Positions 37,752-53,874 of a stretch of DNA of 64,000 bases are shown here, in pieces (positions within the stretch are counted from its first letter, which is position 1; each line of letters begins with the position of its first letter). Source of the DNA: Victivallales bacterium (lineage in GTDB: Bacteria; Verrucomicrobiota; Lentisphaeria; Victivallales; UBA1829); NCBI GenBank assembly GCA_016285345.1, contig JAEEQN010000002.1, forward strand, positions 18,290 through 82,289. Reading direction: 5' to 3'. A program made the translations under genes and the position numbers. A model generated the notes under the pieces. It was not told the DNA's origin. It searched no databases and saw only the letters and a program-made list of their open reading frames with translations.

Positions 37752-37791
37752 GTGTCTTAAACTCAAAAATGGCTTAAGAAGGTGGTTTTTT

Positions 37792-37813: not shown

Positions 37814-38022
37814 TTTGAAAAAGACCAAAATGTAAAGTATAGTATCCCTGTGATTCAAACCATATCAACCCTTCTGTTGTCCGGCATGGAGGTTGGGGGG
37901 TGCGAGTGATAGAGCATGAACGAGGGGCACCTAACTCCGTATTATTATAGCACCATTTTACGATTTTTCAAGCATCGAAATCATAAAGCCGGACAACGGG
38001 GATAAAAAACAAGGAGTCAATC

Positions 38023-39357
38023 ATGGTAAGACAACGGCGGCAGGGCGGAGCATGGTACTATCAGTTTATCCGAGGCGGCAAAGCATACCGTGGGTGTTGC
38101 GAGGGCGCGACAACTAAACGCGAAGCGGAAAGCTACGAAAGGGAAATCATCGCGACGGTGGAGAGCGCAGCCAAGCAGAAAACGGTAAAGGCGCTACTCG
38201 ACAATTTCAGAGAAGAATTGACCGGGGGCGAGAAGATCACCCTTAATGAAGCATTTGAACTGGCCGAACAGAAACCTCGTTCTCGGATTCCCGCCGAGAA
38301 GTATGCTGCAACGAAACGGGCCGTGTGGAACGATTTTCTGGCGTTCATGCGAGGCGAGCACCCGGATATCGAAAATCTGATCGACGTAACGGGAGCGCAT
38401 GCACAGGAGTACATCGCTCTCCTTCAGAAGTCAGGGCGGTATCAAAAGACCGTCAGCTATAGTCGTGGGGCGGGCCGGGGAGCAAGAACCATCATCACGC
38501 AGGCCGCTGATGGTGCATTGTCGGCGAGGACCGTCCGGCTTCATCAAACTGTATGTGCCGAGGTGTTCACGCTGCTTGCGAAGGACGCCGGATTGCAGGA
38601 AAATCCCTTTTCCGGGATCCGAATGATGAAGTCGGACACAGAGACGCGCGAAGCTTTCACTCCAGACGAACTCAAGACCATCTACGACAACCTCGACGAC
38701 TTCACTCGCCCGCTGTTCATGATGGCAGTATGGACGGGTTTTCGTGAGGGCGACATCTGCACGCTCAAATGGAGCGAAGTTGACCTCGTTCGTCGTTTGA
38801 TTACGCGGAGGACGCGCAAAACCAAAGTCGAGGTGCAGATCCCCATATCGAACCAGCTCTACGGGCTGTTGACCGCTACACCACGAACAGAATCCGAGTT
38901 TGTTTTTCCGAAACACGCCGAAATGTATCTGTCGAACCCAGACGGGGTCTCCTACAGAGTGAAGAGGTTTCTTGAGGGGCTGGGGATCGAGACAACTCGA
39001 ATTCCGGAAGGTCGGACGCGGGCAATCAGTGTGAAGGACCTCCACTCATGCCGCCACACATTCTGTTACTACGCCGGACTTGCGGGGATTCCTCTCGCGG
39101 TCGTTCAATCCATCGTCGGGCACATGAGCCCGGAGATGACGAAGCACTACTCGGCCCACGCTTCCATCGAGGACAAGCGGCGCGGCATGGAGCGTCTTTC
39201 ATTCTTCACGCAGGATGCGCTTCCAGAAGCGAAAGCAGACGAACCGGAACGGATAGAACTCCGGCAGCGGATCGAGACTCTGCCGATAGATACAGTCCGC
39301 GCTGTGCTCCAGTTTTTAAATGCACAGGGAATGACTGTTCAGATGGAGTTATTCTAA
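38023..39357 (+). CDS. Tyrosine recombinase / phage-type integrase
   Basis: The C-terminal catalytic region has WTGFREGDICTLKW (Arg I), HSCRHTF (HxxR), VGHMS and TKHY (Tyr nucleophile). The N-terminal SAM-like domain is typical of tRNA-targeting integrases. Confidence 0.9.
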   Translation: MVRQRRQGGAWYYQFIRGGKAYRGCCEGATTKREAESYEREIIATVESAAKQKTVKALLDNFREELTGGEKITLNEAFELAEQKPRSRIPAEKYAATKRAVWNDFLAFMRGEHPDIENLIDVTGAHAQEYIALLQKSGRYQKTVSYSRGAGRGARTIITQAADGALSARTVRLHQTVCAEVFTLLAKDAGLQENPFSGIRMMKSDTETREAFTPDELKTIYDNLDDFTRPLFMMAVWTGFREGDICTLKWSEVDLVRRLITRRTRKTKVEVQIPISNQLYGLLTATPRTESEFVFPKHAEMYLSNPDGVSYRVKRFLEGLGIETTRIPEGRTRAISVKDLHSCRHTFCYYAGLAGIPLAVVQSIVGHMSPEMTKHYSAHASIEDKRRGMERLSFFTQDALPEAKADEPERIELRQRIETLPIDTVRAVLQFLNAQGMTVQMELF

Positions 39358-39717
39358 CGGGTGACACGAAAGACGCACATGATCATCTTCGAGCCATAGG
39401 TTGGAGGATACTGCGTCGACTCTCAGCAATGAATATATACATTGCTGGTCTATTCTTTCATCGTCGCGACCATGCGAAGCATGTCGTTGGCGCTGAGGCT
39501 GTTCTTTTGTCAACCGGAAAAGCCACGCCTCACCGCCCTTGCTGGGGAGATGAGGCGCGGATTGTGTTATGAGGCAGTGCTTACAGGCTCGCGAGGATGC
39601 CCTTGCCGGACGCATCGAAGATGCGCTCCGTAGTGGCATCAAGGATGGCACTGACCAAAAAGAAAAACGCCGCAACAGATCGCTCTGCTACGGCGCTAAG
39701 GTTATCTGTTCTTGTTT

Positions 39718-40440
39718 TTATGCGATGACGGTCCACTCCATGCTGACGCCGTAGCCGAGGACGTTCCACTGGGTAGTGTCGCCGGAGGCGTAGTAGCCGA
39801 GCATGCCGGTGGAATACTGACGGACCAGGAGATCGTCCTGCTGATCGCCGTTGTAATCGCCCGCGCCGACGACGAACCAGTCCTCGGCATCCAGCTGATC
39901 GAGGCTAATGTACTTGCCTTCATCGGCAATACCGTCGGCAATCATGACCATGGAGCCGGATTCCTTGTGGAACAGGACCAGATCGTCTTTGCCATCACCC
40001 TTGAAGTCGCCGATGGCACGGACTTCCCAGCCAGACCAGTTGGCGGAGCCGAGCGAGGCCGAGGTGCCGTCGAGGTTGGCCGCGTAGAAGTACGTGCCAT
40101 TCGCGCCGGACATCACGATGGAGTCCTTGCCGTCGCCGTCGAAGTCACCGCAGCCGACCAGCGTCCAGTCGTCGCCGCCGAAGTTGCCGGAGAGAGAGAC
40201 CCAGTCCTCCTTGCCGTCTTTCCACGCACCGAGCGAGTAAAGCTCAGGCGCGTACCAGACGATGGAGTTCACGCCGGACGCATTGCCCGTGAGGTTGCCG
40301 ACCGCGTTCTTCCAGTCGATGTTTTTCTCGTTCGTGAGGTAACCGATGTTCACCCAGGTGGAGCCGTCCGGGAGGTCGTTCGAGTCGGCGTAATACCCGA
40401 TGTACGCGCCTTTGATCCCGGCATCGCTCGGACTCCGCTG
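39718..40440 (-). pseudogene. FG-GAP/VCBS-repeat protein fragment lacking an N-terminus
   Basis: GDFDGDGKDSIV, GDFKGDGKDDLVLF and GDYNGDQQDDLLV repeats. The frame stays open upstream of the listed GTG (40353) to a stop at 40441-40443, with no ATG or signal peptide. Confidence 0.55.
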
Positions 40441-40543
40441 TTAGGCTTTGGCGCTCCCGTTGCGGCTCCTGCGCCTCAGGGTGGCTTCAGCGGCGGAAAG
40501 GACATTGCTCTTTCATCCGTGCCGACTTAAAATTCCCTTTCCG

Positions 40544-41950
40544 TTACCAATCCATTCCATTTTGACAATATGAATCATCCGTGAAACTTGTTACTCCATA
40601 TTCCATCAATTCCTTCAATGATACGGCATTTTTTGAACTTGTAATCGTGTAGCATCCACATTGAAAACCAACAGCAAGCACAGAAGCTACGTATGCCGAA
40701 TCAATCGTGTTGATACTTTTTTCTGACACAATCCGTGTTTTTGTCAGGTCAATATTGTTTCTCTGTACAAATTCTGTCAATTCTGGCAGTGTAACGTAAC
40801 TGTCCCCGTGTTCCCCGGTATATCCCTCAATTTCTTCACCAAACACATCAAATGCCGTCTGAAGTATGCTTTCATCAAACGCTTTCACATGAAACTTTTT
40901 CAGCAGTCCATGTTTCATCAGCATAGACTTTACAGATTGCCACTGTTCCGTTGTAAGCGCAGGATGGGTGCTGAACATCGGACTCATTCCGTACCTTGCG
41001 CAGATCGCAAAGAAATCGTCAACCGTCAGAATCTTTGTTCCTGTCCAGTATGCGTTTTTATATCGTCCGAAATCCCATTCAAGCAGTTGTGCATATGTCA
41101 TATCGGAAACCCCCATTTTCGTTGACGGGGGATTCCCTTCCGCATCCCGTGCCGTTGCGTTGATCGTATCATCATGGATGCACACAAGCACACCGTCAGA
41201 CGTTGCCTTCGGAACAACGATACACACTGGGTATCCAAGCAGTCCTGCCATTTCAACCGCCGGACGGGTATTTTCCGGGCACAATTGACGGAATCCGAGA
41301 TGAGAACAGAAAATCGGTCTTGCGTCGGCCACTGTCGGATTGTATACCGCTTCCTCGCTGAACAGATAATCAATCGCAACCGTTACGTCTGCCCCAACCG
41401 TAATGGTGATTGTTGTTGTGTCCTGACTTAATGCAGGCGGTATTCTCCACGAATGTATTTCGTATTCGCTCCCATAACTGATATTGTAAACAGGAGAAGA
41501 GTACAATCCATTCTGGAATGTGATGGCAGCATTGCCGCCAGTGCATTTTGCACGGCATCTGACAATCTGCGGAAACGGCGATCTTGTTGTCAGCGTATAT
41601 CTTTGTGTACTCTTCCCGGTCAATGTAACATTGCGGAGTTTAATCCCTCTATACATATCGCCGATAATTCCGAACAGATATTCTTCCTTTTCTCTTGCGG
41701 TATAGTCTTTTGCATCCTTATTCAGTTTCTCTGCCTCTTCTACTGTCACGACAGGCACAGCGGCGGGATTGCCCATTTCTTCGGGTTTCGTTTCGGGAAC
41801 AGAGACTGCCGGTTTCCTGTCGGTCGCGGGGCTTTCGCTTTGAACCGTCTGAACAACAGCATTATCATGGCGATTGAATTCCTTGCAGCCGACAACAAGG
41901 AAAACAATCAAGGTAACTGTTATTGAAATCGGAGCGATCAGTCGTTTCAT
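40544..41950 (-). CDS. Lipoprotein with a C-terminal glycerophosphodiester-phosphodiesterase-like (GDPD) domain
   Basis: Lipobox LVVGC. SHLGFRQLCPENTRPAVEMA...SDGVLVCIHDDTINATARD resembles the GDPD H-R-G/ENT/..DG..V..HD motifs, although partly substituted. The gene is markedly AT-richer than its surroundings. Confidence 0.55.
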   Translation of the reverse strand: MKRLIAPISITVTLIVFLVVGCKEFNRHDNAVVQTVQSESPATDRKPAVSVPETKPEEMGNPAAVPVVTVEEAEKLNKDAKDYTAREKEEYLFGIIGDMYRGIKLRNVTLTGKSTQRYTLTTRSPFPQIVRCRAKCTGGNAAITFQNGLYSSPVYNISYGSEYEIHSWRIPPALSQDTTTITITVGADVTVAIDYLFSEEAVYNPTVADARPIFCSHLGFRQLCPENTRPAVEMAGLLGYPVCIVVPKATSDGVLVCIHDDTINATARDAEGNPPSTKMGVSDMTYAQLLEWDFGRYKNAYWTGTKILTVDDFFAICARYGMSPMFSTHPALTTEQWQSVKSMLMKHGLLKKFHVKAFDESILQTAFDVFGEEIEGYTGEHGDSYVTLPELTEFVQRNNIDLTKTRIVSEKSINTIDSAYVASVLAVGFQCGCYTITSSKNAVSLKELMEYGVTSFTDDSYCQNGMDW

Positions 41951-43184
41951 TTGTCAAGGATCCCCGGATTCTTAAAAACTGAAATCCCGGAACAGAAAGA
42001 CAAACTTCCATTCCGGGAAAAAGGTTCAAAGGCACGAGGCAGCTGCCGGACTAAAGGTTTTCCGGCAGGGAAGAAATATGCGCTGGATGAAGATATGAAC
42101 AGGAACACTGCGGCCTCGAACGGGTGACATTATACGCATGAGGCAACGCCTGGACAAAAAAAGCCGGACATTTCACATGCGCGGTGATGAAGGTCCGACC
42201 AAGAACCTGCTACTAGGACACAGAGAAACGCCCAGCAAAACATGAAGATACAATCTTCCTGTGCTGGTTTTTCATCCCTAGTAGCAAAAGAGGTCTTTTT
42301 GAAACTTGGTCGGTTTTCATCACCTTTTGCTGAAAAACGATGTAATGAGCTCGGAAACCGTCCTCCACTGGGTGCGGAGCCGGAATCCGGGGATAATTTA
42401 CCCCCAAGTCGCGAAAAAGTCAAGCCCCAATCCGGTGCTTTTCTCATCTTTTTCCGGATTTTCCGTCACCAGGACCGTCACAATACATCCACATAGAACA
42501 CAAAGGAATCTACATTTTCATATATTGAGCTTATCCCGCCTCGGATATTCTTTGTGCGATACAGGGCCGTAACATCCAAATGATTGACAGGCTGTCCGTT
42601 ATCTTATCCTGCTTGCTCTTTGCTTATGTGTCGTCCTATTTAGAGATGCAATGTTTATAATTACGAGTTCTAAAACAATCACTCTATACTTTCATTGTAT
42701 TTCAATTAATGTGTTTCCATTTCAAACTGGATCATTCTCTACACGATTTGAACTGACTAAAACGAAATTTTTCCCTGTTGGAATACATCTGCAAAAATTC
42801 AACTTGAAGTTGAAAATCTCTCTTCACATACGAGAAATGGTGTCGACACAATCTGATTGTAATATCGATAGAGCGTAATAATCAACAAATATTATCAATA
42901 CTCTTTGCTGCACATTATATTGTATTTCTATCTCGCCGCAATATGCAACAGAGATAAAGGTCAGATTATGGAAAACACATCGTCAGACCTCTGACGATGT
43001 GATCTATTGTTGCACCGATGGAGCCAGAATGTTTCTCCCGTCAAACAAAAATGCGCCTCTTCACGTCGTTTTCAGCCATTTTTGCCTCGTTTAAGCTTAA
43101 TTTTTCTCATTTTTGTGAGAATAATATGATGACGGGATTGGATTCGCCAGTCCCGCAATAAAACAACCATAGGAGTACAAAACT

Positions 43185-43901
43185 ATGAAAAAAACTAATG
43201 TGCTTGTCCTCGCTGGGCTAGCACTCGCTGTCCTTTTGGCTGCAGCCGGTATGCGTACCAATAGGACAACCACAAAATTCGCCGGAAATGCCTCCAGCCT
43301 TACGGAACTGGATCAGCGTGCGCGTCCATTCTTCGAGGAAGCCGAGAAAAGCATTCCGAATGTCGTCTCGGAACTCAGCGGCACTCAGGAGTTCCTGAAC
43401 ATGTGTGGACTGGCCGTTGTCGACAAGATCAGCGGTTCAAACAAGATGGAGCAGAAACTCGCTTCCGTGATAGACGGTTCGATTCTGGCCCCGTGTCGAA
43501 AGGGAGCCTCCGTCTACGGGTGCAACATCAATCCGGTTTTGGCTCGTGGCTCTCTGTCGGACCTTCATCGGGACGCGATGACTTCCGTTCTCTATGCGTC
43601 AGGGGGATTGGCTCTGGAAGCGGCATTCCTGAAGACGACCTTGAAGTCGGTGCAATGCGTCATTGGTCCGATCGCGGAAAAAAACGCCGCGAAAATCGGA
43701 ACTGGAGCCACACTTGCCGCAGCTGACGGGCCGCTCCCCATTGGCGACACCATCGGTGTCATTCTGGCTGTCGGTGGTTCCGCGTGGTCAGTTCATGACC
43801 TGCTTGCTCTTCGTCGAGACCTGCCGGGCGCAATTTCTGCCGCACTCCGGCAGGCAATCCAGGAGTATTGGAAACAGTGCAGATTGGAGGCCGCTCAATG
43901 A
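43185..43901 (+). CDS. Hypothetical secreted/membrane protein
   Basis: 238 aa. AGGAG RBS. N-terminal signal anchor (VLVLAGLALAVLLAAAG). Gly/Ala-rich hydrophobic C-terminal segment. Confidence 0.6.
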   Translation: MKKTNVLVLAGLALAVLLAAAGMRTNRTTTKFAGNASSLTELDQRARPFFEEAEKSIPNVVSELSGTQEFLNMCGLAVVDKISGSNKMEQKLASVIDGSILAPCRKGASVYGCNINPVLARGSLSDLHRDAMTSVLYASGGLALEAAFLKTTLKSVQCVIGPIAEKNAAKIGTGATLAAADGPLPIGDTIGVILAVGGSAWSVHDLLALRRDLPGAISAALRQAIQEYWKQCRLEAAQ

Positions 43902-44239
43902 AGACTCTCCTGATTCTGTTACTGGCCCTGATGACGGGCTTCGTTTCCGCCATGCCTGCGCGCCGCCCCTATCGGAAGCCGCTGAAGCCCGCCCGTGTCG
44001 TGGAGACAAACCGACCTGTCTCATGGAAGGCCGTGGCCGCCGCTGGAGCCGCCGCCACAGGCGTGGTAGCGGCCTACAAAATCGGGTCCGGCGTTGAGGA
44101 CGGCTTGTCTACCACAGCCAAAGAAGCCCCCGTGGCGTTCCTCAGCTCGATCACGCTGTCATCGCTCTTCATCCCCCTGATCACTGTCGTGGGCATCCCT
44201 GTCGTCGGATATCTGATCTGGCAGAAACTCTCAAATTAA
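43898..44239 (+). CDS. Small membrane protein (signal peptide plus C-terminal TM)
   Basis: ATGA overlap with the upstream stop. MKTLLILLLALMTGFVSA signal sequence. C-terminal TM LFIPLITVVGIPVVGYLIW. Confidence 0.55.
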   Translation: MKTLLILLLALMTGFVSAMPARRPYRKPLKPARVVETNRPVSWKAVAAAGAAATGVVAAYKIGSGVEDGLSTTAKEAPVAFLSSITLSSLFIPLITVVGIPVVGYLIWQKLSN

Positions 44240-44261
44240 CCTCAAACCGAAAGGATACAAC

Positions 44262-45803
44262 ATGGAAATCTCTTTGAACAAAACCGAGCTGACCGGAGCG
44301 CTTCCTGCCTTGGGGAAACTTGTCTCCCGGACGTCCCTTATCAAGGCGTATCAGGCGATCCAAATCGAAGGTAGGGCGCACACGCTCTTCTTCCGTACCC
44401 GCAACGTCGTCGAAGGAATCGAATTCCGAATGGACGCCGATTTGGAAGATGACTTTCCTGCGGTTCTCGTAGAATTCGAGCAGTTCCGACTGGCCGTCCG
44501 CAACAGCAAGAAAAAAACGCTGGACCTGGAAGTCGAGAATGGCGAGGTCTTCATTGATGACGTCATGCTCGCACCTGTGAACGGACACTTTCCCGTGCCA
44601 GAGAACATCCCGGATCAGGATGCCACGGTTACGGAACTGCCCGCCGACACGCTGGCCGCGCTGTCACTGCTTGCCCCGCTCACAGACAAAGGGCAGGACA
44701 TTCGCAAGGTTCTCGGCGGAATCAACATCAGCCGGGACGGGCTCACCGCGACCAACGGCAAGGAGCTGTCGAATATCCCGCTCTCACTGGAGATGACCGG
44801 TAACGTCACGATTCCGTTCCCGCTCGCTCTGCTTGCCACAAAAGCATTCGGCGAATCCGGCAGGCTCACGACCTGGCAGAAGGACGAGGACACGCGCTTC
44901 GAGCTTTCGCTTGGTAACTGGACCTGGCGGGCGAAGGCGTACAAAGAGAACTACCCGAACTGGAAGCTCGTCGTGCCGGACCGGACAGAGGCCACGCACT
45001 ATGTGAGCTTCCAGGACGACCGCGCCGAACTGCTCCAGCGTTACCTAAAAAGCGTTCCTGACGACCCGCAGAACAACAACGGCATCAAGCTGAGCCGTCT
45101 CGAAGTCCCGGACAACCTTCATCTGGAAAGTTCGAACGGGATGCTGTTCAGCGTTCTCGCCGAATTCGACGATGCTTGGGGCGACCTGAGTTTCACCGTC
45201 AGGAAAGAATTCCTCCTGCATCTGCTGAACGCCGGACACCGGAAGATCGAGCTCAACGATGCCTACGGTCCGATTGTCGGAACTGGTGGCAATGGCGAAT
45301 ATATCGCCATGCCTATCATCACCAAAAGACCGCAAGCTCAAACCGAGCAGAAGCCGGAAGAGACCGCATCCAGCCAGACGGATACAAACGTTGCTGTTCA
45401 GGCTGAACAGACCGCACCTCAACCCATTCCCGAACAAACGGAATCCGTCACCGAGCAGATTCCGAATCACGAACAGGAAACATCCCCCACAAACAAAACC
45501 AATACCACACCCTCAACGAAGGAAAACACCACCATGATCGACACCAACACCATCACGCACGTCGTGTCTGCCCCCGTGCAGACGTCCGCCCAGAACAACA
45601 AACCCGAATCCAAGTTGAACCCGATGGACGAACTGATCATCAGCATCGAAGCGTTCAAGGCCAAGCTCAAGGCCATGGTCGATGAATCCACCGCCATGAG
45701 CCGTAAGGTCTGCGAGGTCGCCATCTCCCAGAGGCAGAAGGAACGCGAGTACGCGCGGACGAAGAAGACCATCGAAAAAATCCGGGTGGCCAGCGGCTTC
45801 TGA
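44262..45803 (+). CDS. Divergent DNA polymerase III beta sliding-clamp (DnaN)-like protein with a C-terminal extension of about 140 aa
   Basis: Collinear by eye with E. coli DnaN: ISLNKTELTGALPALGKLV / FTVEREHLLKPLQQVSG; HFPVPENIP / DFPNLDDW; LTATNGKEL / VATDGHRLA; ENYPNWKLVVP / GRFPDYRRVLP; GEYIAMPI / AAYVVMPM. This is followed by a Thr/Pro/Gln-rich linker and a coiled coil. Confidence 0.65.
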   Translation: MEISLNKTELTGALPALGKLVSRTSLIKAYQAIQIEGRAHTLFFRTRNVVEGIEFRMDADLEDDFPAVLVEFEQFRLAVRNSKKKTLDLEVENGEVFIDDVMLAPVNGHFPVPENIPDQDATVTELPADTLAALSLLAPLTDKGQDIRKVLGGINISRDGLTATNGKELSNIPLSLEMTGNVTIPFPLALLATKAFGESGRLTTWQKDEDTRFELSLGNWTWRAKAYKENYPNWKLVVPDRTEATHYVSFQDDRAELLQRYLKSVPDDPQNNNGIKLSRLEVPDNLHLESSNGMLFSVLAEFDDAWGDLSFTVRKEFLLHLLNAGHRKIELNDAYGPIVGTGGNGEYIAMPIITKRPQAQTEQKPEETASSQTDTNVAVQAEQTAPQPIPEQTESVTEQIPNHEQETSPTNKTNTTPSTKENTTMIDTNTITHVVSAPVQTSAQNNKPESKLNPMDELIISIEAFKAKLKAMVDESTAMSRKVCEVAISQRQKEREYARTKKTIEKIRVASGF

Positions 45804-45883
45804 ACCGTCATCTCCCGACATCACCCCAACACCGCCCTCGGCAGCTCACTGTTGCTGGGGGCAATCTTTGAAAGGAAACCATC

Positions 45884-46360
45884 ATGCTCAAACTCAATGC
45901 ATCCTACAGCAAGAAAATCCCCGCACAATCTGAGTATTCTTCTCAGTCCTACCACGCCTCAGTCGAGGTCGAGCTTCCTGATGGACTCACGACCGAACAA
46001 TTGAATGCGAAGATCCACGAGACATTCGCGCTCGTCCGCGACAGCGTGGAAACGGAACTGCACGGAAACACGGTTCAGCAGTCCGCTCCGATCCCCCAGA
46101 CCTCGAACGCGCAGCCCCAACCGGGTCTGTACGAAAACCAGCCGCAAAACGCGTCGAAGCCCATCTACGGCAAGAAGAACGGCACGACCTCGGACGCTCC
46201 CGCTTCTCCCAAGCAGGTCAAGTACCTCCTTGATCTCGCCCGCCAGTTCGGAATCAATCCGGAGCAAATCAAGGCCAAGTTCAACGTGCCAGCGCTCGAA
46301 AGTCTAACGAAGACGCAGTGCAGCCGTGCCATTGATGAGCTCAACGGAAAGGCGGCCTGA
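45884..46360 (+). CDS. Hypothetical island protein
   Basis: 158-aa ORF with an RBS. Gln/Pro-rich middle section. The C-terminal ASPKQVKYLLDLARQFGINPEQI...LTKTQCSRAIDEL looks like a small helical DNA/protein-binding module. No assignment made. Confidence 0.55.
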   Translation: MLKLNASYSKKIPAQSEYSSQSYHASVEVELPDGLTTEQLNAKIHETFALVRDSVETELHGNTVQQSAPIPQTSNAQPQPGLYENQPQNASKPIYGKKNGTTSDAPASPKQVKYLLDLARQFGINPEQIKAKFNVPALESLTKTQCSRAIDELNGKAA

Positions 46361-46361
46361 T

Positions 46362-47153
46362 ATGGAACGCACAATTGAAACTGTCCGCGAGGCACCGCAC
46401 TGGTCGTACAGCTCGTTGCAGCTTTTTTTGAACTGCCCCTTGCGTTACTACTTCCGGTACGTTGAAAAAGCTGAGGTGGAAAGGACAAGTGTAAGCCTGC
46501 CGTTCGGGCGGGCTTTCCACGCCGTCTTGAGCCTTCGCGCGGAGAAAGGCTCGGTTTACAGCGCCGAGGACGCGAAAGAAGACTTTGCCGTGTACTTCCG
46601 AGGCGAAACCGAGGTCAGCGAGAACCTGACGTACAAGCAGGATGAGGACTATTGGTTCTGGGAACAGCGCGGATGCGACATGCTGGAGGTCGCTTTTGCA
46701 GAATGGCCGGACGATTATTCGGTCAAATCTGTGGCGGAGGCGTTCAGCGTGGACGTTCCAGGACTGAGCAAGCCTCTCATCGGCGAGTTCGATCTCGTCG
46801 TTAATGACGGCGGGGACGAAACGATCTGCGATTTTAAAACGGCGTCGACGAAGTGGCCGACCGGGAAAGCTGACAGAGATCTGCAGGCGACTGCCTTCTC
46901 ATTCGCATATCAGAAGCGCCACGGCAAAATCCCGATCTTCCGCTTCGACGTCTTCACGAAGGCGAAGAATCCGGTTCACCAGCAACTCTACACGCTCAGG
47001 ACGAACGATGATTTCGACCGTTTCGTCTACCTCGCCAACAAAATTGAGGCGGCAGTGAACACCGGCATCTTCCTCCCGGTAGAATCGTGCATGAACTGTG
47101 CTGAATGCGCCTACGGGGACCGCTGCAAAGCGGTCCACAGAAAGGCGGCGTAA
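46362..47153 (+). CDS. PD-(D/E)XK nuclease of the Cas4/RecB(AddB) type with a Fe-S cysteine cluster
   Basis: N-terminal FLNCPLRYYF, FDLVV...ICDFKT (D..(D/E)xK core) and C-terminal CMNCAECAYGDRC. Start taken at ATG 46362, 1 nt after the upstream stop. Confidence 0.7.
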   Translation: MERTIETVREAPHWSYSSLQLFLNCPLRYYFRYVEKAEVERTSVSLPFGRAFHAVLSLRAEKGSVYSAEDAKEDFAVYFRGETEVSENLTYKQDEDYWFWEQRGCDMLEVAFAEWPDDYSVKSVAEAFSVDVPGLSKPLIGEFDLVVNDGGDETICDFKTASTKWPTGKADRDLQATAFSFAYQKRHGKIPIFRFDVFTKAKNPVHQQLYTLRTNDDFDRFVYLANKIEAAVNTGIFLPVESCMNCAECAYGDRCKAVHRKAA

Positions 47154-47154
47154 C

Positions 47155-47883
47155 ATGGGACTGATTATGCAGGAAGGCAAATACGTCAGCCGTGATGAAG
47201 TCGCGTGTATCGACACCCCAAGTTCGACTGAAACATGGAGACCTGTGCCGCACATTGATGTCATCGAGGCCGTAACCGAAGTTGTCAAGGCTCACCGCTG
47301 GGATATTGCGGACGAACGGTTCGGCCTCGCCAGCGAAGGACAGAAGATGTTCGGCGTCATGGAAATCTCCCGTTCATCTTCGCCTCAATGGCATCGCTGT
47401 ATCGGCATCCGCAACAGCCACGACAAAACCCTTGCCGTTGGACTGTCTGCCGGAATCGTCGTTCTTGTCTGCTCCAACCTCGCTTTCGGCGGAACCACCG
47501 TCATCAAGCGCAAGCACACCAGCCGGTTTGAACTGACCGATCTGATCGACCGTGCCGTGGCATCGCTGGAGGACGACTTCCTGATGACCGAAACCGTGTG
47601 CGAGGACCTGAAGGACATCCACCTCAAAAACGATGACGAAGCCCGGAGTAGCATTGTGCGTGCTGCCGAGCTCGGCGTCATCAATTCCTGTGACATTCTT
47701 CCGGTCTACCGTGAATTCAAGTCCCCGTCACATGCCGAGTTCAAGGAGCCAACACGATGGAGCCTGTTGAATGCATTTACGGAAACCGTGAAGAAGTACA
47801 CGCCTCAGCGTGTGGACCACAGCTATCTCGCCCTGAACCGGGCGTTCGGGCTGGACGGTCGCCCTGCCGCCATCTTCACCTGA
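47155..47883 (+). CDS. DUF932-family protein (phage/plasmid-associated)
   Basis: IGIRNSHDKTLAVGLSAGIVVLVCSNLAF and the overall length resemble DUF932/TIGR03299 proteins. Start at ATG 47155, just after the upstream TAA. Confidence 0.6.
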   Translation: MGLIMQEGKYVSRDEVACIDTPSSTETWRPVPHIDVIEAVTEVVKAHRWDIADERFGLASEGQKMFGVMEISRSSSPQWHRCIGIRNSHDKTLAVGLSAGIVVLVCSNLAFGGTTVIKRKHTSRFELTDLIDRAVASLEDDFLMTETVCEDLKDIHLKNDDEARSSIVRAAELGVINSCDILPVYREFKSPSHAEFKEPTRWSLLNAFTETVKKYTPQRVDHSYLALNRAFGLDGRPAAIFT

Positions 47884-47910
47884 CGGCGAGAACGAGCAAC
47901 CCGGCATGGT

Positions 47911-47951
47911 CGGAGGTCGAAGGAGTGCAAGCCTTCCCTCCGGTTTTTTTT
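47911..47951 (+). terminator. Strong rho-independent terminator ending the clamp/nuclease/DUF932 operon
   Basis: CGGAGG+GAAGG (47911-47923) pair with CCTTC+CCTCCG (47932-47942), followed by eight T. Confidence 0.75.
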
Positions 47952-48014
47952 ATATTGAGGTTGCGCGAGCTGTCAAATCGACAAAAAAAGTTTCAGAAAA
48001 AATCGTTGTTTCGC

Positions 48015-48043
48015 TTGATTTCTCCTGTCGACGATGTTAAATT
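48015..48043 (+). promoter_or_regulatory. Candidate sigma70 promoter with an extended -10
   Basis: TTGATT (48015-48020), 17 nt spacer, TGtTAAATT (48035-48043). It lies between a terminator and a 0.7 kb non-coding stretch. Confidence 0.5.
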
Positions 48044-48049
48044 ATTTCT

Positions 48050-48760
48050 CGGCTGAAACAAGAGCGGCATCCCCGTTACCACCAACATCGGGGCGAAGCG
48101 CTCCAGACAGCCACCACACATCGTGATCTAACGGCGGACACCAGACTGAACCAAGGGTCGGACGCACCGAACCTCCAGCAGTGATCGGGCGGGAACATCC
48201 TCTCAGCCGGGCAAACAGAACGCTTGGATCGCGGTCACAGACTACAGCACATAGGTGAACGTTCAGCGCCTGCACTCGCAGCCCAAGAACGTCAGCTGTT
48301 CCCCAGAAGGCATCGGACCAAACCTATACGGTCGGCGATGCGAACAGCGCATAGGCGATGTCAAAACCGGCCAAAGCGGTCAAGACATCGGGCTGTCCCC
48401 AGATAGCATCGGGCCACCTATTCGGCCGAAATGCTATACCTCCCCAACACGACGTACCAATGACCGCCACTGCGGCGAGTCAGCGGGCGCGTACTGTTGT
48501 CCACGGCAGCAAACGACCCCAAAGGCCGGATGCCAACCGTCCAGAGCGAAGCATTGGACCACCAATGGTCTCAGATGCTTGGGAACAGCAGGGCCCGGAA
48601 ACATCCCGGAGCGAACTCAGGCCAGAAGCCTGAGCAAGGTTCGGAGTGCAACCGGGGCAACAACGGGCACAGGCCGAAAGGTCTGGGCAAAGCACTCGGT
48701 GAAGACCTCGCAGAAGCGGAATCGGCATCGGGAACAAACCTATGAAACAGGAGTCTTACA
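48050..48760 (+). ncRNA. Candidate large structured non-coding RNA / long 5' leader of the Xis-like gene
   Basis: About 710 nt with no plausible ORF. The + strand is T-poor. Local hairpins are dense: CATTGG-ACCA-CCAATG at 48552-48567, CTCAGGC-CAGAA-GCCTGAG at 48616-48634, AGGCC-GAAA-GGTCT at 48671-48684. A duplicated hairpin module lies at 48310-48341 and 48405-48435. Confidence 0.3.
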
Positions 48761-49105
48761 ATGAGCAACATGCTCGAACATACGCCCCAAAACGGGGAGA
48801 CAACGGACGGCCTCAAATCGGTCGTTCCGCAGAACGTACTGGATATCATCCGGTGCGCCATCTCGCCGTACCCCGTCCCTTGGAGCAGAATCCGTAATGC
48901 TATCTTATCAGAAGAGGACGGCAATTCAAAGTCTATTCTGCCAGATGATCTCATGGACACCGCAGAGGCCATTAAGGCTCTGAAAATCTCGCGTGTCACA
49001 CTTCATCGTCGTGTGCGGGAAGGAACCATCCCCGTACACAAATTAGGACGCAGAAATCTCTATTCTCTGAAGGAGATAAGGGAAGTCCTGCAGGTGGAGA
49101 ACTAA
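48761..49105 (+). CDS. Excisionase/AlpA-family helix-turn-helix DNA-binding protein
   Basis: LMDTAEAIKALKISRVTLHRRVREGTIPVHKLGRRNLYSLKEIREVL matches the excisionase-family HTH pattern. AGGAG RBS at 48750-48754. Confidence 0.7.
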   Translation: MSNMLEHTPQNGETTDGLKSVVPQNVLDIIRCAISPYPVPWSRIRNAILSEEDGNSKSILPDDLMDTAEAIKALKISRVTLHRRVREGTIPVHKLGRRNLYSLKEIREVLQVEN

Positions 49106-49407
49106 CGACCATCATAGATCATCCCACAAGACCACGACAGGTCCCGCGATCTCGTGACAAATCGCTGGTAGGCAGCAAACCATGGTAGGCTCCTTCACTC
49201 CTGGCGAGCTGTCTCCGGTGAGCGTCCGGCTCTGCTAACTGAAAGCCCATTGCCGCTACATCGGCTCACACAGGCGAACAGCCCAGCGAACCCGACGATG
49301 CGTCACAACAAGGTCTCGACTTATGATCTACACGGCAGCCACCCCAACTGTCTCTGTGAGAATCGTTCCTGTCTGGCAAAGGACAACGAACACCGTCTGA
49401 AAATAAC

Positions 49408-51029
49408 ATGCAAAACAAAACAACCAATATCCATGCGCCGAGGGACAACTCCCACGGTGCGAACACCCCTGGCTCAGACCAGTCTTCGGACACCGAGAAT
49501 CGTACCAAGCTCTCGCGAGAAGTCCAGACCGACCGGATCAAGCAATTTCCCGAAGAATCGGGAATTGATACGGAACGGTGTAACAATCGCGTTGAGAATG
49601 ACACGACCGCTTCGGCGTACGACTGGCTGCCCAAGCCGATCAAATACAACTCCAAAACGCGCGAGGACCAGACCGACAGGTGTATTCTCCGCAATGGGAA
49701 ACAGGGAAGTGCGCCTGAAACACTGCCGAAGAAAGAGAGCGTGAAAACGGCAGCCAAGCACAACCCGCAAATCGGACAGCAGAATACCAGACAGACTGAC
49801 TCCTTCTGGACCGGTGGTTCTGAACGCTCCGGCAGTTCATCAAAGCAGAAACACAAACAGCGGTACTATGATCCGCTAATCGGAAATCATGTCATCCCGA
49901 TCATCTGGAATCATGACCTCCTGGAACGAATCGCGGACAGGGACAATCTCCTACAAGCAATCGCCTTCTTAGCCCGTCACAAGGAGAAAACTCCTGGTCC
50001 GGACCACAAGAGCGTGGAGGAGACCTGCATCATGCTTTCCGATCCGGAGAACCTGGAACGCCTTCGGCAACAGCTTCTTCAGGAAACATACCGACCCGGT
50101 AATGTCCAATCAACACAAATCCCCAAATCCAACGGAAAGACGCGGCCCTTAAAGATCGCGACTGTGATGGATCGCTGCGTACAGCGTGCAATCCTACAGC
50201 AGGTAATCACGAACCTACCGAAGAATCCGTGGTGCCCCTACTCCTTTGCATACCACCACGGGCAAAACACGACCGACGCAATCGAAGAAGTCAACAGGAT
50301 CCGGGAAGAGGGATACAAGTACGCTATCGAACTGGACCTCGAGTCCTTCTTCGACAATGTACGGCATACCAGACTCCTGAAGAAACTCCGTAGACATATC
50401 GCCGATAAGAGGGTAGTCCGAATGATCTCTCACATCATATCGGCCCTTATCATCAATAATCACGGGGAGCTGACGAAAAACCGCAAAGGCACACCGCAAG
50501 GCTTCGCGATTTCCTCATGGCTCGCAGCAGACCTATACCTGGATGAAATGGATCAGGAAATGACACGGCGCAACCTGCGCTTCGTCCGTTTCGCTGACGA
50601 CATTACTATATTCACCCGCTCGAAGAAGTCGGCCAAGCGTGTCAAGGCCAGAATCATCGAGTTCACTGAAAACGTAATGGAATGTCCGGTCAACAAGAAG
50701 AAAACCAGAATCGTCACCATTGAGAACGTCTCCCCTCCCTCTTGGGAGTCGAACTCAGGGATGGCCACTGGAGAATCCTTCGCGAAAAGGTCCGCAACCA
50801 CTGCGGCGAATACATGAAGGACATAGCCAAGTATAAGAAAACGAAGAATGACTACTACATCCGCAAGGCAGCCCAGAGCATGCAGGGATTCATCGGCGGT
50901 TACACCAGGATTCCTGACATCTGCCTGAGACAAATTCGGGCACTGAGATGCTGGTGCATGAACAGGTGGTGGGCCACGGGTGAACGCAAGCTGTTCTTCG
51001 CCCAGAAACGCTGGATGGTGCCAGACTAA
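49408..51029 (+). pseudogene. Group-II-intron-type reverse transcriptase (RT plus thumb/X, no endonuclease domain), interrupted by a frameshift near 50735
   Basis: RT0 LLERIADRDNLLQA; RT2 IPKSNGKTRPLKIATVMDRCVQRA; RT4 LDLESFFDNVRH; RT5 GTPQGFAISSWLAADLYL; FADD; KTRIV. The thumb continues in the -1 frame (50742-51029: LGVELRDGHWRI...MQGFIGGY). The first roughly 165 codons are low-complexity and probably not genuine protein. Confidence 0.75.
49457..51029 (+). mobile_element. Group II intron-like retroelement remnant: 5' GUGCG, domain-I-like RNA and an intron-encoded RT; no domain V/VI recognised
   Basis: GTGCG at 49457-49461. GATACGGAAC (49567), GCGTTGAG (49589) and GTACGACTG (49617) occur in the same order and roughly the same spacing as GAUACGGGAAC/GCGAUGAG/GUACGACUG in Ll.LtrB domain I, as I recall that sequence. 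Confidence 0.4.
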
Positions 51030-51091
51030 CCACGGGACGCAAACGCTACTCTGCAAAGATGAACTGAATTACCGCTCTATTAACTGAGCCT

Positions 51092-51135
51092 GAGCAGCGC
51101 TTCAGGTGTGAATGACCTGGAGTGCTGCTCTTTTT
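51092..51135 (+). terminator. Strong rho-independent terminator after the RT
   Basis: GAGCAGCGCTTCAGG (51092-51106) pairs over 15 bp (two G-U) with CCTGGAGTGCTGCTC (51116-51130), followed by TTTTT. Confidence 0.75.
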
Positions 51136-51219
51136 GATTTCGCTGACGGCACTCGTCTTTGGCTTCCGAAGAACAATTAACCTCAACCCAAGCAACCGAA
51201 ATGCCGTTTTTAACCTCAG

Positions 51220-51243
51220 ATCGTGGCAAAATCGTGGAAAAGG
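51220..51243 (-). repeat. Inverted copies of the arm-type motif (ATCGTGGCAAAATCGTGGAAAAGG)
   Basis: The reverse complement reads CCTTTTCCACGATTTTGCCACGAT, related to the direct copies at 51405-51444 and 37792-37813. Confidence 0.5.
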
Positions 51244-51404
51244 TCCCCATTTCCACAATTGTCGTGGCGAATGATCGCTGCTGTTTTCAGCACGATGGGA
51301 CGTACCAGACAGGAACCGGAGGCATATCGCGGAAGGCTCGGTTTTCCACGGACATACATGAATGCTTGAGCAGGAAGGGCGAAAAATCTGAGCTCAAAAG
51401 CCTG

Positions 51405-51444
51405 CCACGATTTTTCCACGATTTTTCCACGATTTGTGTCACGA
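51405..51444 (+). repeat. Three tandem arm-type motifs (CCACGATTTTT x2, CCACGATTTGTGTCACGA) next to the right att
   Basis: ccacgatttttccacgatttttccacgatttgtgtcacga lies 54 nt from the direct repeat. Confidence 0.55.
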
Positions 51445-51497
51445 AACATAAAAAAACACCATGTTTCACGATGTATGAAAAATGGTGATTTAAGCTC

Positions 51498-51553
51498 AAA
51501 AAGTGGTGCACCCGGCGGGGCTCGAACCCACCACCTACTGCTCCGGAGGCAGT
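51498..51553 (-). repeat. att direct repeat, right copy (inside the intact tRNA-Arg)
   Basis: Identical to 37696-37751. Confidence 0.9.
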
Positions 51554-51580
51554 CGCTCTATCCAAATGAGCTACGGGTGC
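51504..51580 (-). tRNA. tRNA-Arg (anticodon CCG)
   Basis: The reverse complement folds as a 77-nt cloverleaf: GCACCCG/TA/GCTC-ATTTGGATA-GAGC/G/ACTGC-CTCCGGA-GCAGT/AGGTG/GTGGG-TTCGAGC-CCCGC/CGGGTGC/A/CCA. Anticodon loop C-U-CCG-G-A. CCA is encoded. Confidence 0.9.
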
Positions 51581-51675
51581 ACTGCATAACGCAGTCAAAT
51601 AATATAGCGCAAAGTCAAAAAAAAGCAAATCCTCGTCTCGAAAAAGCAGGAAAAACGTTGAGGAAGGGGGGCGGA

Positions 51676-53874
51676 TCAGAAGATGTTCGGGGCTGTGACG
51701 GTTGCAGTGACGTCGATCTTTTCGATGTAGTACCAGTCCTGGCTGGGGAGGTAGTTCACGCAATAGATGATACGGCGGCCGTTCTCGATGCGCGAGATCG
51801 TGCCGTATTTGGTCTCGGTGAACTGTTCGAAGAGGCCGGCGTCGTCGAAGCTGATGGTCAGGGAGTCTTCCTTGTTCGTTTCCGTGGCTCCGGCGAACCG
51901 GGCTCCGGTGGAGACCAGGATCAGCCCTTTGTTGTCCAGCAGGGTCTTTTCCAGGACGTTGTTCCCGACGTTGCCGTTCGTCTTCAGGTCGTGAATGATC
52001 GTGTTCAGGTGCAGGTCGAATCCGGCGACGCCGAGGAAATTGCCGGCGGTATCCAGCATGGGGACGTTGCAGGAGAGCAGATAGCCCGCGGCGGCGGTAT
52101 TGCCGGGGTAGGGTTTGCTCCAGGCGAATTCGCCGCTGCTGGACTGGGCGGTCTTGTACCAGTGGCGGCTGCGCGGATCGTAGCTTGATGCATAGACGCC
52201 GCTGCCGGGGTACACGACGTACTGGCCGTCGGGGAATCCGAAGAGCAGCAGATGAAGCGGGATGCCGTTGAGGCGGAGATATTCGTTCTTTTCGGCGTCG
52301 GAGGCGTCCGCGAGCTTTTCCGGCAGGCGTTCGCTGAAGACGCCCATGATCGTATCCTTCAGATGCGCCAGGATGTGCAGGCGGCGTTTCTCGACGGCGG
52401 TCAGTTCCTCTCCGTGGATGGTTTTGTGGGCGAAGTGCGAGAAATCGATCTTGCGGTGGTATACGGAGGAATACAGGAGCGAAGCGGGGGGATTGTTCGT
52501 GTCGCGGAGCGCGGAAACGGACATCATGCAGTCGGGGTTCGTTTCTCCGTCGTCCGGGTCGGTCTCGTAGAGGAAGACGAACTCCGAGGTGATGGACGAG
52601 AGGAACTGGGCGTTGCGCGCGATGTTCGTTTCGATGTAGTCGGCGCACGCGGTGGACTGGACCTGCGCGGTGGCGAGCTGCCGCGCGTATGCGTGAACCG
52701 CGTTAATCTGGCTGACGCGGCGGTAGGCTGTCACACCGATCGTGAGGAGCAGCATGAGGATGCAGACGACGGCGAACGCCAGCGAGGCGCGTTTGTGGTG
52801 GACGGCGAACGCGGAGATGCGCCCGAAAAGGTGATATGGGTTCGCGGAGGTCTCCTCGCCGCCCATGTAGCGGCGGATGTCGGCGCCCAGGTCGCGGACG
52901 TTCTGGTAGCGTTCGTCGCGGTTGTACGCGGTCGCCTTCGCGATGATCGCCTTCAGGTCGGGGTCGATCCTGAACCCGTATTTGTGGCGCGTTTCGGCGA
53001 TGCGGCCTTCGCGGATCATGGAGACGACCTCGGCGCTGGTGCGCGCCATGTAGGCTTCGCGGAGCGTGACGACCTCGAACAGAATGAGCCCGAGCGCGTA
53101 GATGTCCGCGCGCTGGTCGGTGTGTTCTCCCTGGATGGCTTCGGGCGACAGGAAACGCGGCGTGCCGGAGATCGTGCTTGGTTTTTCCCATGTGGCGGGG
53201 TCGTAACCGGGTTCTTCGATCTGGCGGGCGATGCCCCAGTCCATGATGTAGGTCTCGCGGAACTCGCCGATGAGGATGTTTTCCGGCTTGAGGTCGCAAT
53301 GCATGATGTTGCGGCTGTGGGCGTAGTCGAGGGCGTCGCATACGCGGAGCATGACCTCGAGGCGGAACATCAGGGACTTGCGTTCGTCGAACTGTCCGAT
53401 GCCGGCCTTGCGGTATTCGTAGTCGAGCTGGTCCAGATAGTCTTTCAGCGTCTTGCCGTCGACGAGCTTCATCACGAGGTGGAGCCCGTCCTTGTCGTCC
53501 GAGTTCAGCGAATAGATCGGGATGATCGCGGGGTGGCTGAGCTGGGCAGTGACGCGCGCCTCCTGGATGAACTGGCCGCGCGTGAACTGGTCCTCGGGCT
53601 GCGATTTGAGCGTCTTGATCGCCACGGGACGGCGGAGGTTCAGGTCGAGCCCCTCGCGGATGATGCCCTGTCCGCCTTCCGCGAAGACTTTGCCCTGCCG
53701 GTATTCCGCGTCGATGGGCTCCAGCTTGACGTCCAGCCGGTCGTCGAACCGGACGGTGGAGTGGTCCACGTGCGTGAACGTGACGGTGGTGTCCTGTTCG
53801 CGTCCGAGGTTCTTCAGCCCGACCCTGATCGAGGTTACGGTATGGACTTTGCCTGATGTCGCGCCCCGGCTCAT
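51676..53874 (-). CDS. Ser/Thr protein kinase (Hanks type) with a TM segment and a C-terminal extracytoplasmic Cache domain
   Basis: VAIKTLK (catalytic Lys), HCDLKPENILI, MDWGIA, GTPRFLSPEA. One TM (LAFAVVCILMLLLTIGVTAY). YDPRSRHWYKTA is the Cache hallmark. Confidence 0.85.
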   Translation of the reverse strand: MSRGATSGKVHTVTSIRVGLKNLGREQDTTVTFTHVDHSTVRFDDRLDVKLEPIDAEYRQGKVFAEGGQGIIREGLDLNLRRPVAIKTLKSQPEDQFTRGQFIQEARVTAQLSHPAIIPIYSLNSDDKDGLHLVMKLVDGKTLKDYLDQLDYEYRKAGIGQFDERKSLMFRLEVMLRVCDALDYAHSRNIMHCDLKPENILIGEFRETYIMDWGIARQIEEPGYDPATWEKPSTISGTPRFLSPEAIQGEHTDQRADIYALGLILFEVVTLREAYMARTSAEVVSMIREGRIAETRHKYGFRIDPDLKAIIAKATAYNRDERYQNVRDLGADIRRYMGGEETSANPYHLFGRISAFAVHHKRASLAFAVVCILMLLLTIGVTAYRRVSQINAVHAYARQLATAQVQSTACADYIETNIARNAQFLSSITSEFVFLYETDPDDGETNPDCMMSVSALRDTNNPPASLLYSSVYHRKIDFSHFAHKTIHGEELTAVEKRRLHILAHLKDTIMGVFSERLPEKLADASDAEKNEYLRLNGIPLHLLLFGFPDGQYVVYPGSGVYASSYDPRSRHWYKTAQSSSGEFAWSKPYPGNTAAAGYLLSCNVPMLDTAGNFLGVAGFDLHLNTIIHDLKTNGNVGNNVLEKTLLDNKGLILVSTGARFAGATETNKEDSLTISFDDAGLFEQFTETKYGTISRIENGRRIIYCVNYLPSQDWYYIEKIDVTATVTAPNIF

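Follow-up and report, generated by a model that had tools for sequence, protein, structure and literature searches.

A group IIC-like reverse transcriptase with a conserved structured RNA inside its reading frame, carried by an integrative island in Lentisphaerota

Positions 47911-51135 of a 64-kb stretch of DNA from a Victivallales bacterium (the window) make up one terminator-bounded unit on the + strand, comprising a promoter-like site, a non-coding leader, a gene for a helix-turn-helix (HTH) protein of the HTH_17 type and a gene for a reverse transcriptase (RT) of the group II type (Table 1). Relatives of the unit, all metagenomic, were compared with it as loci designated L001, L002, L006 and so on. 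Our main finding concerns the stretch annotated as the N-terminal extension of the RT: judged by its pattern of substitution, it is mainly a conserved folded RNA, with the reading frame maintained through the motif. The RT and this RNA together form the invariant part of a module that is found as accessory cargo in an integrative island.

Table 1. Features of the unit and of the surrounding island (positions in the window)
Feature	Position	Strand	Remarks
attL copy / attR	37696-37751 / 51498-51553		Perfect 56-nt direct repeat; 3' part of tRNA-Arg(CCG)
Tyrosine integrase	38023-39357	+	Pfam Phage_integrase, 3.9e-21; far end of the island
Upstream intrinsic terminator	47910-47951	+	Follows the DUF932 gene and ends the upstream island operon; marks where the unit begins
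Promoter-like site	48015-48043	+	TTGATT, 17-nt spacer, extended -10 TGT-TAAATT; read directly from the sequence
Leader	48045-48760	+	Non-coding, T-poor, strongly structured; lineage-specific
HTH_17 (excisionase/AlpA-type) protein, 114 aa	48761-49105	+	Pfam HTH_17, 2.7e-9; PHROGs excisionase
HTH-RT spacer	49106-49407	+	Fast-evolving; no called open reading frame
Annotated N-terminal extension of the RT	49408-49866	+	Translated through; constraint at the RNA level
Upstream partial copy of the motif's first stem-loop domain	49514-49592	+	43-nt inserted hairpin
Core RT-associated structured RNA motif	49644-49839	+	Six helices, about 193 model positions
RT core (fingers, palm, thumb)	49867-51029	+	Free-standing, group-IIC-like; frameshifted in the window copy
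CTCCC CTCCC, perfect 5-nt tandem duplication	50730-50739	+	Frameshift just before the thumb domain
Downstream intrinsic terminator	51092-51135	+	Hairpin 51092-51130, then T5; end of the unit
Arm-type repeats CCACGATTTTTCCACGATT	51217-51439		Direct and inverted; between the RT and attR
tRNA-Arg(CCG)	51507-51580	-	Rfam tRNA, 61 bits; overlaps attR (feature 51498-51580)

The reverse transcriptase and the RNA within its reading frame

The RT reading frame starts at 49408 and matches RVT_1 at 1e-34. An earlier note on this DNA, made from the sequence alone, had described two protein-like frames in the unit, a 114-aa HTH protein and a group-II-type RT; Pfam and PHROGs agree with both, and searches of the unit with Pfam, NCBIfam and PHROGs-type profiles returned no protein families beyond them. 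Two homologues of 537 aa, P0001 (93% identity) and P0002 (86%), are intact and read straight through. The same note had recorded that the window RT is broken without naming the lesion, which we trace to the 5-nt CTCCC tandem duplication of Table 1. In an alignment with L006 and L001 the duplication is present in the window only and absent from both close relatives, and the tblastn match to the window is split between two frames. Since nothing else in the window RT is damaged, the duplication is either very recent or an assembly error; unless it is the latter, this copy is probably inactive, being truncated before the thumb domain.

The RT family consists of some 79 protein clusters with scores of at least 236 bits, set apart by a gap from genuine group II RTs, whose scores do not exceed 173 bits. 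PF08388 (GIIM/maturase) is found in none of the roughly 79 family clusters and is carried by all of the next-best matches. The named members all belong to Lentisphaeria or Victivallaceae and derive from metagenome-assembled genomes; the family occurs in 2 of 185,579 species representatives, and scans of viral contigs for it found nothing. Within the family, the catalytic ADD is invariant (as F/YADD). In the RT core, most substitutions among the window, L001 and L006 are at third codon positions, with divergences of 0.14/0.12/0.42 at the three codon positions in the deeper group A; by this measure, the family is under purifying selection. The best match in the PDB, both by sequence and by predicted fold, is the GsI-IIC RT (171 bits, 30% identity, TM 0.73 over fingers, palm and thumb), with the G2L4, DRT9, DRT2, diversity-generating retroelement (DGR) and retron RTs ranking lower; Foldseek places DRT9 and DRT2 below the group II RTs. 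AlphaFold, run with the family alignment, models residues 150-534 with a pLDDT near 90. Among the groups that the earlier note had proposed for comparison (group II, G2L, UG/DRT, retron and DGR), group II RTs are thus the closest by profile models, and a group IIC RT is the closest by structure.

The loci fetched hold one copy of this RT each, in fixed island contexts with an HTH partner. The partner encoded upstream varies by clade, being an HTH_17 protein in the clade of the window, a catalytically dead RT paralogue in another subgroup and a DUF3987 protein in a third, so that the invariant unit is the RNA plus the RT. L097, L098 and L100 possess both DUF3987 and the RT. The dead paralogue (L089, 2487-3824; also L090, L091, L092, L095 and L096) is encoded between an HTH_17 gene and that of the active RT; its identity to the family RT is 29%, and it has YNNE in place of YADD and KLKSALD in place of DLKSFFD.

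The N-terminal extension behaves differently from the RT core. Its substitutions by codon position number 19/25/19 and 12/11/11 among the window, L001 and L006, with no periodicity, and its divergence in group A is 0.21/0.19/0.24, such that third positions diverge about half as much as the RT-core synonymous sites (0.42). AlphaFold gives residues 1-148 a pLDDT of about 30 and no secondary structure. At the RNA level, positions 49420-49659 fold with a z score of -6.4.

We aligned the 330 nt that precede the conserved YDP codon in 18 loci, later enlarging the alignment to 26 sequences. For the 18 loci, the RNAalifold consensus contains 27-28 pairs in six helices, 20 of the pairs having compensatory double changes. 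Paired cells amount to 91.5%, as against 77% in shuffled alignments (0 of 500 reached the observed value) and 31-43% when the pairing partners are slid by 1-3 columns. Cells changed on both sides number 66, compared with 17.8 after shuffling and 8-16 after sliding, and the covariation score is 0.42, compared with 0.17 and at most 0.12, respectively. With 26 sequences, 89.6% of cells pair (slid controls 30-37%) and 21 pairs are compensatory. The earlier note had suggested a test for covariation over homologous loci; it yields these 20-21 compensatory pairs, located in the N-terminal stretch of the RT and not in the leader.

A covariance model of the 193-position core, R1, was searched against all loci. 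It scores 169 bits at the window copy and 102-196 bits directly 5' of every family RT, including 114-148 bits in L112-L114, which lie outside its training set. In nine ordinary group II loci, R1 found nothing but one 30-nt match of 10.3 bits (E 0.75), and in RT-less sister islands only one weak match of 15.5 bits; Rfam has no match for the motif. Weaker extra copies lie further upstream in L097, L098, L002, L100, L112 and L113. The window itself has one full copy and a marginal partial copy (49514-49592), the latter matching R1 locally at 10 bits (E 0.025, filters off) and forming a direct repeat with 49658-49680; marginal alone, it has clearer counterparts among the upstream copies of relatives. 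Long N-terminal extensions, which bring open reading frames (ORFs) to as much as 729 aa in L097 and L100, consist of arrays of the motif in strongly structured T-poor regions (z -4.9 to -5.9).

All 20 full-length instances of the motif measure 190, 193, 196, 199 or 202 nt, lengths that are 1 mod 3. An internal start between the motif and the RT core was considered and rejected, as the sequences contain no in-frame ATG, GTG or TTG there; an ATG that recurs within TAT-GAT is out of frame and not conserved. Given the lengths of 1 mod 3 and the lack of an in-frame start after the motif, the ribosome must read through the RNA element. The earlier description of RNA-like sequence fused in frame to the RT is therefore borne out as regards a conserved, covarying structure and needs amending as regards its place, since the element is translated through and does not lie upstream of the ORF.

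The rest of the unit and its island

Both terminators that the earlier note had placed around the unit are real, in that each folds more stably than its shuffled versions. The upstream hairpin (47910-47943; 12 bp with a 2-nt bulge, followed by T8; -16.8 kcal/mol, z -2.3) is kept in the nearest relative, L006, and was not called by the consensus scan. The downstream hairpin, with a 16-bp stem (-30.7 kcal/mol, z -6.3), ranks first in a scan of 44-54 kb and is conserved in L002 and L001 through base changes that preserve pairing. The scan called no + strand terminator in the interval that they enclose, consistent with a single transcription unit. Of the 'good extended -10 promoter' claimed earlier, the layout stands and is shared with L006 (TTGACA-16-TGC-TACATT there, within diverged flanks); the site has 8 of 12 matches, just short of the threshold of the scanning tool.

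The T-poor composition noted earlier is likewise present (10-15% T, AT skew 0.3-0.5); since an excess of A over T is general on the coding strands of this genome, composition alone is weak evidence. The description of the unit as hairpin-rich applies to the leader and to 49420-49659, but not to the 300-nt spacer between the HTH and RT genes, which has local z scores of -0.7 and +0.6. Only L001 and L006 retain this spacer, at about 38% substitutions and with indels whose lengths are not multiples of 3. At the gathering threshold, the sole Rfam match is the neighbouring tRNA, and at E values up to 10 only chance-level matches appear within 47700-51400.

The leader (716 nt) has a minimum-free-energy z score of -5.6, two coding controls giving -0.8 and -1.2. 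That 48050-48760 codes for protein, which the earlier note had named as a finding that would overturn its proposal, is rejected: substitutions relative to L006 are spread evenly over the codon phases (114/96/104), 2 of 18 indels are multiples of 3, all three frames contain stops, and the longest ORF matches no Pfam family. Nor does the leader match Rfam or R1. The L006 counterpart folds with a z score of -3.8. By nhmmer, as by an exact search for its core motif, the leader has a homologue in L006 alone. Homology between L001 and the window begins only at 48749, an opposite-strand gene takes the place of the leader in L113, and upstream of the HTH gene the other loci have ordinary AT-rich intergenic DNA. 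The leader as a conserved RNA partner of the RT is accordingly rejected; of the structured 0.7-kb leader proposed earlier, what stands is a non-coding, folded, lineage-specific 5' region outside the conserved RT module.

Within the L006 leader, positions 186-549 hold three tandem copies (75% matches) of a 123-nt unit present once in the window, at about 48112-48234; the conserved core of this unit is ACGCACCGAACCTCCAG.AGTGATCGG. Its four copies display 2 compensatory pairs and a positive covariation term, from few sequences.

Substitutions in the HTH_17 gene fall mostly at third codon positions (50, versus 18 and 17 at the other two, among the window, L001 and L006). Islands of this kind contain two types of HTH_17 gene. 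One, 50-72% identical within itself, occurs also in RT-less islands; the other, 36-89% identical within itself, is found immediately 5' of the RT in the window, L001, L006, L113 and L114. L113 carries both types and the window only the RT-adjacent one. By these comparisons, the HTH protein beside the RT represents an HTH_17 subtype of its own, which accompanies this RT clade. The label 'Xis-like' given to it earlier thus holds as to family (HTH_17, PHROGs excisionase) and less so as to identity, because it is not simply the generic HTH of the island, and a role as Xis is putative. In L113, the island-type HTH_17 gene follows the RT (9990-10253), which puts one HTH type on each side of the RT module.

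The 56-nt attachment (att) repeat, the tyrosine integrase and the arm-type repeats define a 13.8-kb integrative island, in which a direct repeat of the 3' end of a tRNA gene flanks an integrase-encoding block. The CCACGATTTTTCCACGATT repeats, direct and inverted, lie near both ends of the island (37786-37814, 51217-51241 and 51400-51439), are conserved in L002 and are probably binding sites, of the arm type, for the integrase or Xis of the island. The RT unit is the last transcription unit before attR, and its placement at the tRNA-proximal end of an integrative island, proposed in the earlier note, is confirmed by these features.

The core of the island encodes, in order, a signal-peptide protein, a small membrane protein, a clamp-like processivity factor, a 158-aa protein, a PD-(D/E)XK exonuclease and a DUF932 protein, and it recurs in many Lentisphaerota contigs. 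The clamp-like family includes at least 480 clusters at 68% identity or more and always adjoins the exonuclease and the DUF932 protein. Three sister islands with the same core (c2-c4-clamp-c7-PDDEXK-DUF932) have no RT within 10 kb on each side; in sister islands, the slot after DUF932 is occupied by other genes, including those for DUF4942, a dynamin-like GTPase, AAA_25 and HipA. It follows from these RT-less islands and the other genes in their slot that the RT unit is accessory cargo, located between the DUF932 gene and attR/tRNA-Arg, and not a core function of the island. The RT as a core island gene is rejected on the same islands and on cluster counts (about 79 versus at least 480). Adjacency to tRNA genes is also rejected as a property of the RT: it is seen in the window, L001 (tRNA-Thr) and L002 (tRNA-Arg), in none of 22 other family loci, and arises because of the att site of the island.

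Several other parts of the island were seen in passing. The window clamp-like DNA polymerase processivity factor (44262-45803) has 513 aa and a low-complexity C-terminal tail. Further cargo consists of a 468-aa protein with a glycerophosphodiester phosphodiesterase (GDPD) domain (40544-41950, - strand) and a 272-aa protein with no family match (39712-40530, + strand). A conserved non-coding element of about 300 nt (42100-42440, + strand) precedes the first core gene; copies with 72-81% nucleotide identity occur in L113 (238-525), L106 (6657-7000), L110 (8493-8764), L112 (55-338) and L002 (7831-8076), in RT-containing and RT-less islands alike. From eight copies, RNAalifold predicts a long hairpin with 42 pairs, of which 12 show compensatory changes. 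The 3' end of the element resembles the 5' half of the first hairpin of the RT motif, and the element abuts the RT RNA in L002. It is a candidate island noncoding RNA (ncRNA), or a candidate regulatory or origin element. A second RT fragment suggested by ORF clustering at 42130-42496 proved to be this separate element, with no R1 match. Between it and the first core gene lies about 0.7 kb of AT-rich non-coding DNA (42500-43180; GC near 0.3-0.4, genome about 0.55), which may be a regulatory or origin region.

Comparison with known reverse transcriptase systems

The system is not an intron, a retron, a DGR, a CRISPR-associated RT, G2L4 or a member of the UG/DRT (defence-associated RT) families, in keeping with the earlier statement that by eye it matches none of the RT-plus-ncRNA systems; Rfam, PADLOC and NCBIfam gave no retron, DGR or DRT match. 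A search of the literature for a described Lentisphaerota RT module found nothing relevant.

The nearest relatives of the RT are those of group IIC introns. Domains DV/DVI (Rfam RF00029, Intron_gpII) are missing at the gathering threshold in the 64-kb window and at E up to 10 in 47700-51400, the models of domains DI-DIV (group-II-D1D4) likewise give no match in either search, and the sole 3' hairpin is the 16-bp unbulged terminator followed by T5. The earlier conclusion that this is not a complete group II intron is therefore upheld. The protein falls short of the intron-encoded RT/maturase profile TIGR04416 (222 bits, cut-off 300 bits) and lacks PF08388, with a thumb resembling that of the GsI-IIC RT (PDB 6AR1/6AR3). 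It shares with that RT the best sequence and fold match, QGxxxSP and F/YADD, the lack of an endonuclease domain and a tie to structured RNA around the start of the ORF. It differs in having no detectable ribozyme and no Pfam GIIM, in a six-helix RNA that lies inside the ORF and is often tandem, and in being single-copy island cargo where the other belongs to an intron within a host gene.

Closest in function by analogy are the class 2 UG/Abi DRTs (DRT2, DRT9, DRT10/UG17), in which an RT is accompanied by an adjacent, structured, family-specific RNA at variable cargo positions of islands; DRT2 and DRT9 do not necessarily need a large effector. Here, a covarying motif directly 5' of the RT core is found in all family loci. 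In contrast to those systems, group II models fit this RT best (198-222 bits), the RNA is within the ORF, and no template repeat or U-tract was identified. The UG-family models score lower (Drt9 121, UG21 120, UG17 114 and Drt2 59 bits) than the generic group II model (198), and NCBIfam Drt2, Drt3a, Drt4 and Drt5 are all far below their cut-offs; scores with models of Abi and CRISPR-associated RTs are much lower as well. The subgroup comprising L089-L092, L095 and L096 recalls DRT3 (UG3 + UG8 + ncRNA) in having two tandem RT paralogues plus RNA; its upstream paralogue, however, is dead (YNNE) and a within-family duplicate, not a pairing of class 1 with class 2, and the window has one RT.

Retrons are excluded on protein and RNA alike. 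NF038233 scores 63 bits against a cut-off of 235, PADLOC retron RT models reach at most 61 bits versus 198 for the group-II-type model, and a search for msr/msd gave no Rfam retron or RT-motif match, the inverted repeats being internal helices of the leader and spacer with no a1/a2 pair. A repeat search of 36000-52000 for the template/variable repeat pair of a DGR returned the att and arm repeats and short chance matches only. There are no cas genes among the neighbours in any locus; a CRISPR-repeat match has a chance-level E of 4.3, and a PADLOC Cas1_IIIb match spans the RT domain only.

Free-standing G2L RTs (Simon and Zimmerly 2008, PMC2602772) resemble this family in being near group II RTs with no recognizable intron RNA. 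G2L4 differs in its YIDD motif (F/YADD here), its proteobacterial distribution, its part in DNA repair and its lack of a known RNA partner, and its structures score 40 bits. G2L1 and G2L2 are linked to CRISPR, and G2L5 is distinguished by an active-site DN and an N-terminal extension of 500 aa; for none of them has a covarying RNA within the ORF been described, and the classes in PMC2602772 and PMC4244168 do not match this RT family. Finally, in the DIVa autoregulatory site of group II introns, too, the 5' end of the RT coding region forms an RNA structure, potentially bound by the encoded RT. DIVa is a single small stem-loop around the ribosome-binding site and start codon, whereas the present motif, a structure of about 195 nt and six helices, is found downstream of the start codon.

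Interpretation and competing explanations

The sequence comparisons support a domesticated RT of group IIC intron origin that has a conserved RNA of its own and forms part of the island's cargo. It would be a two-part retro-module, i.e., a free-standing RT of group II (IIC-like) descent plus a structured RNA of about 195 nt that is sometimes tandem. The RT would bind the RNA element on its own transcript, as in group II introns, retrons and class 2 DRTs; the RNA would serve as a scaffold, a template or both for the synthesis of complementary DNA (cDNA), and the HTH protein would regulate expression. Because class 2 DRTs and retrons also join an RT to an adjacent RNA on a mobile element, we rank a DRT-like RT-RNA function first, holding it with about as much confidence as doubt. 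Given the position in a cargo slot, the most probable benefit would be protection against phages or rival elements.

Several points weigh against this reading. The window RT copy is frameshifted, and the leader, the most strongly folded part of the unit, is left without explanation by the model. We infer RT-RNA binding, cDNA synthesis and defence, as we do the role of the HTH protein, from analogy only, and no effector gene is evident. Some members stand alone (e.g., L093), and L002 has no adjacent HTH gene. With its location inside the ORF, the RNA departs from the known ncRNAs of DRTs and retrons and could be a purely cis-regulatory or translational element. In other islands, primase-helicase genes (DUF5906, DUF3987) occupy the slot after HTH_17, which would fit a role in replication or maintenance equally well. 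Shared ancestry can exaggerate the outcome of the shuffle control used for the covariation; against an artefact stand the slid controls and the R1 matches in untrained loci.

The main rival is that the domesticated RT has a DNA-level job for the island or the host, such as replication priming or repair in the manner of G2L4, and that its RNA is a cis operator descended from the high-affinity DIVa site, by which the RT would repress or tune its own translation and which would not act as a template. DIVa binding sites of group II introns lie within the 5' part of the ORF, as does the structure here, and the reading frame is kept through the motif. The RT follows HTH_17 where RT-less islands carry the DUF5906 or DUF3987 primase-helicases, and the window island has no recognizable replication initiator, but does have a clamp-like protein and an exonuclease; the lack of an effector gene also suits this explanation. 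Set against it, an RNA of six helices, often repeated two to four times, exceeds what an operator needs. The co-occurrence of DUF3987 with the RT in L097, L098 and L100 implies that the RT is no simple primase replacement, G2L4 is distant (40 bits; YIDD versus F/YADD), and the RT is absent from the three sister islands and forms far fewer clusters than the clamp family. We regard this alternative as unlikely, although it deserves to be taken seriously.

Improbable, in our view, is an autonomous retroelement of a new kind, in which the RT and RNA would copy themselves via the structured transcript into island or tRNA-proximal sites. Cis-preferring retroelements use RNA structure on their own RT mRNA, and the module does vary in position relative to the island core (it follows the integrase in L007, DUF3987 in L100 and the HTH gene in the window) and adjoins tRNA genes in the window, L001 and L002. 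The island att site, however, accounts for the tRNA adjacency, which 22 other loci lack. Neither target-site duplications nor defined ends of an element turned up, homology stops at island ends or deletions and marks out no discrete unit, there is no endonuclease domain, and covariance-model matches per locus reveal no multiple copies of the family RT within any fetched locus or the 64-kb window.

Equally doubtful is a genuine protein domain, disordered, basic and nucleic-acid-binding, with the RNA structure a by-product of repetitive peptide motifs or skewed composition. The strictly kept reading frame, a recurring peptide motif (R-E-V-Q-A-x-R-R-N) and a T-poor composition that leaves several frames open would all be expected of it, and the failure of AlphaFold to find structure fits disorder. 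Disorder does not explain nucleotide-level covariation, however, with 66-91 cells showing double compensatory changes compared with 8-21 when partners are slid 1-3 columns, and third positions are as constrained as first and second ones and twice as constrained as RT-core synonymous sites.

Weakest is the explanation that the earlier note had set against its own proposal, a dead or decaying group II intron beside an excisionase gene with an eroding ribozyme as flanking RNA: group IIC introns do insert after terminator hairpins and a terminator precedes the block, the RT has its closest relatives among those of group IIC introns and the window copy is frameshifted, but this is largely refuted and now very improbable, given no Intron_gpII or group-II-D1D4 match up to E 10, a distinct conserved family of about 79 clusters under apparent purifying selection with an intact, invariant catalytic motif, a covarying upstream RNA that is conserved and not eroding, single copies in fixed, recurrent island contexts with an HTH partner, and intact 537-aa ORFs in close relatives.

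RT-plus-ncRNA modules (retrons, DRT2, DRT9, DRT10, DRT3) have repeatedly given new biochemistry and tools, and to our knowledge the characterized examples in defence all come from retron or UG/Abi lineages. That the module described here is an undescribed class strikes us as a fair conjecture, held with somewhat more doubt than confidence: an RT derived from group IIC would be translated through an array of its cognate RNA modules, its coding sequence doubling as an ncRNA that is both scaffold and template for cDNA, for antiviral defence or island maintenance in Lentisphaerota, with a dead paralogue in some lineages and by an independent domestication. The covariance model and the intact homologues (the loci encoding P0001 and P0002) are available for experiments. 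For annotation, the called 'N-terminal extensions' of 100-350 aa on these RTs are largely the RNA element. If the reading is true, the family would be a separate lineage, parallel to retrons, DGRs and UG/DRT systems, in which a relative of group IIC introns lost its ribozyme yet kept or gained a different conserved RNA; and an RNA embedded in the coding sequence of its enzyme, sometimes in tandem, would raise the question of how intron RTs are domesticated, and whether such an RNA is a template, a scaffold or an operator.

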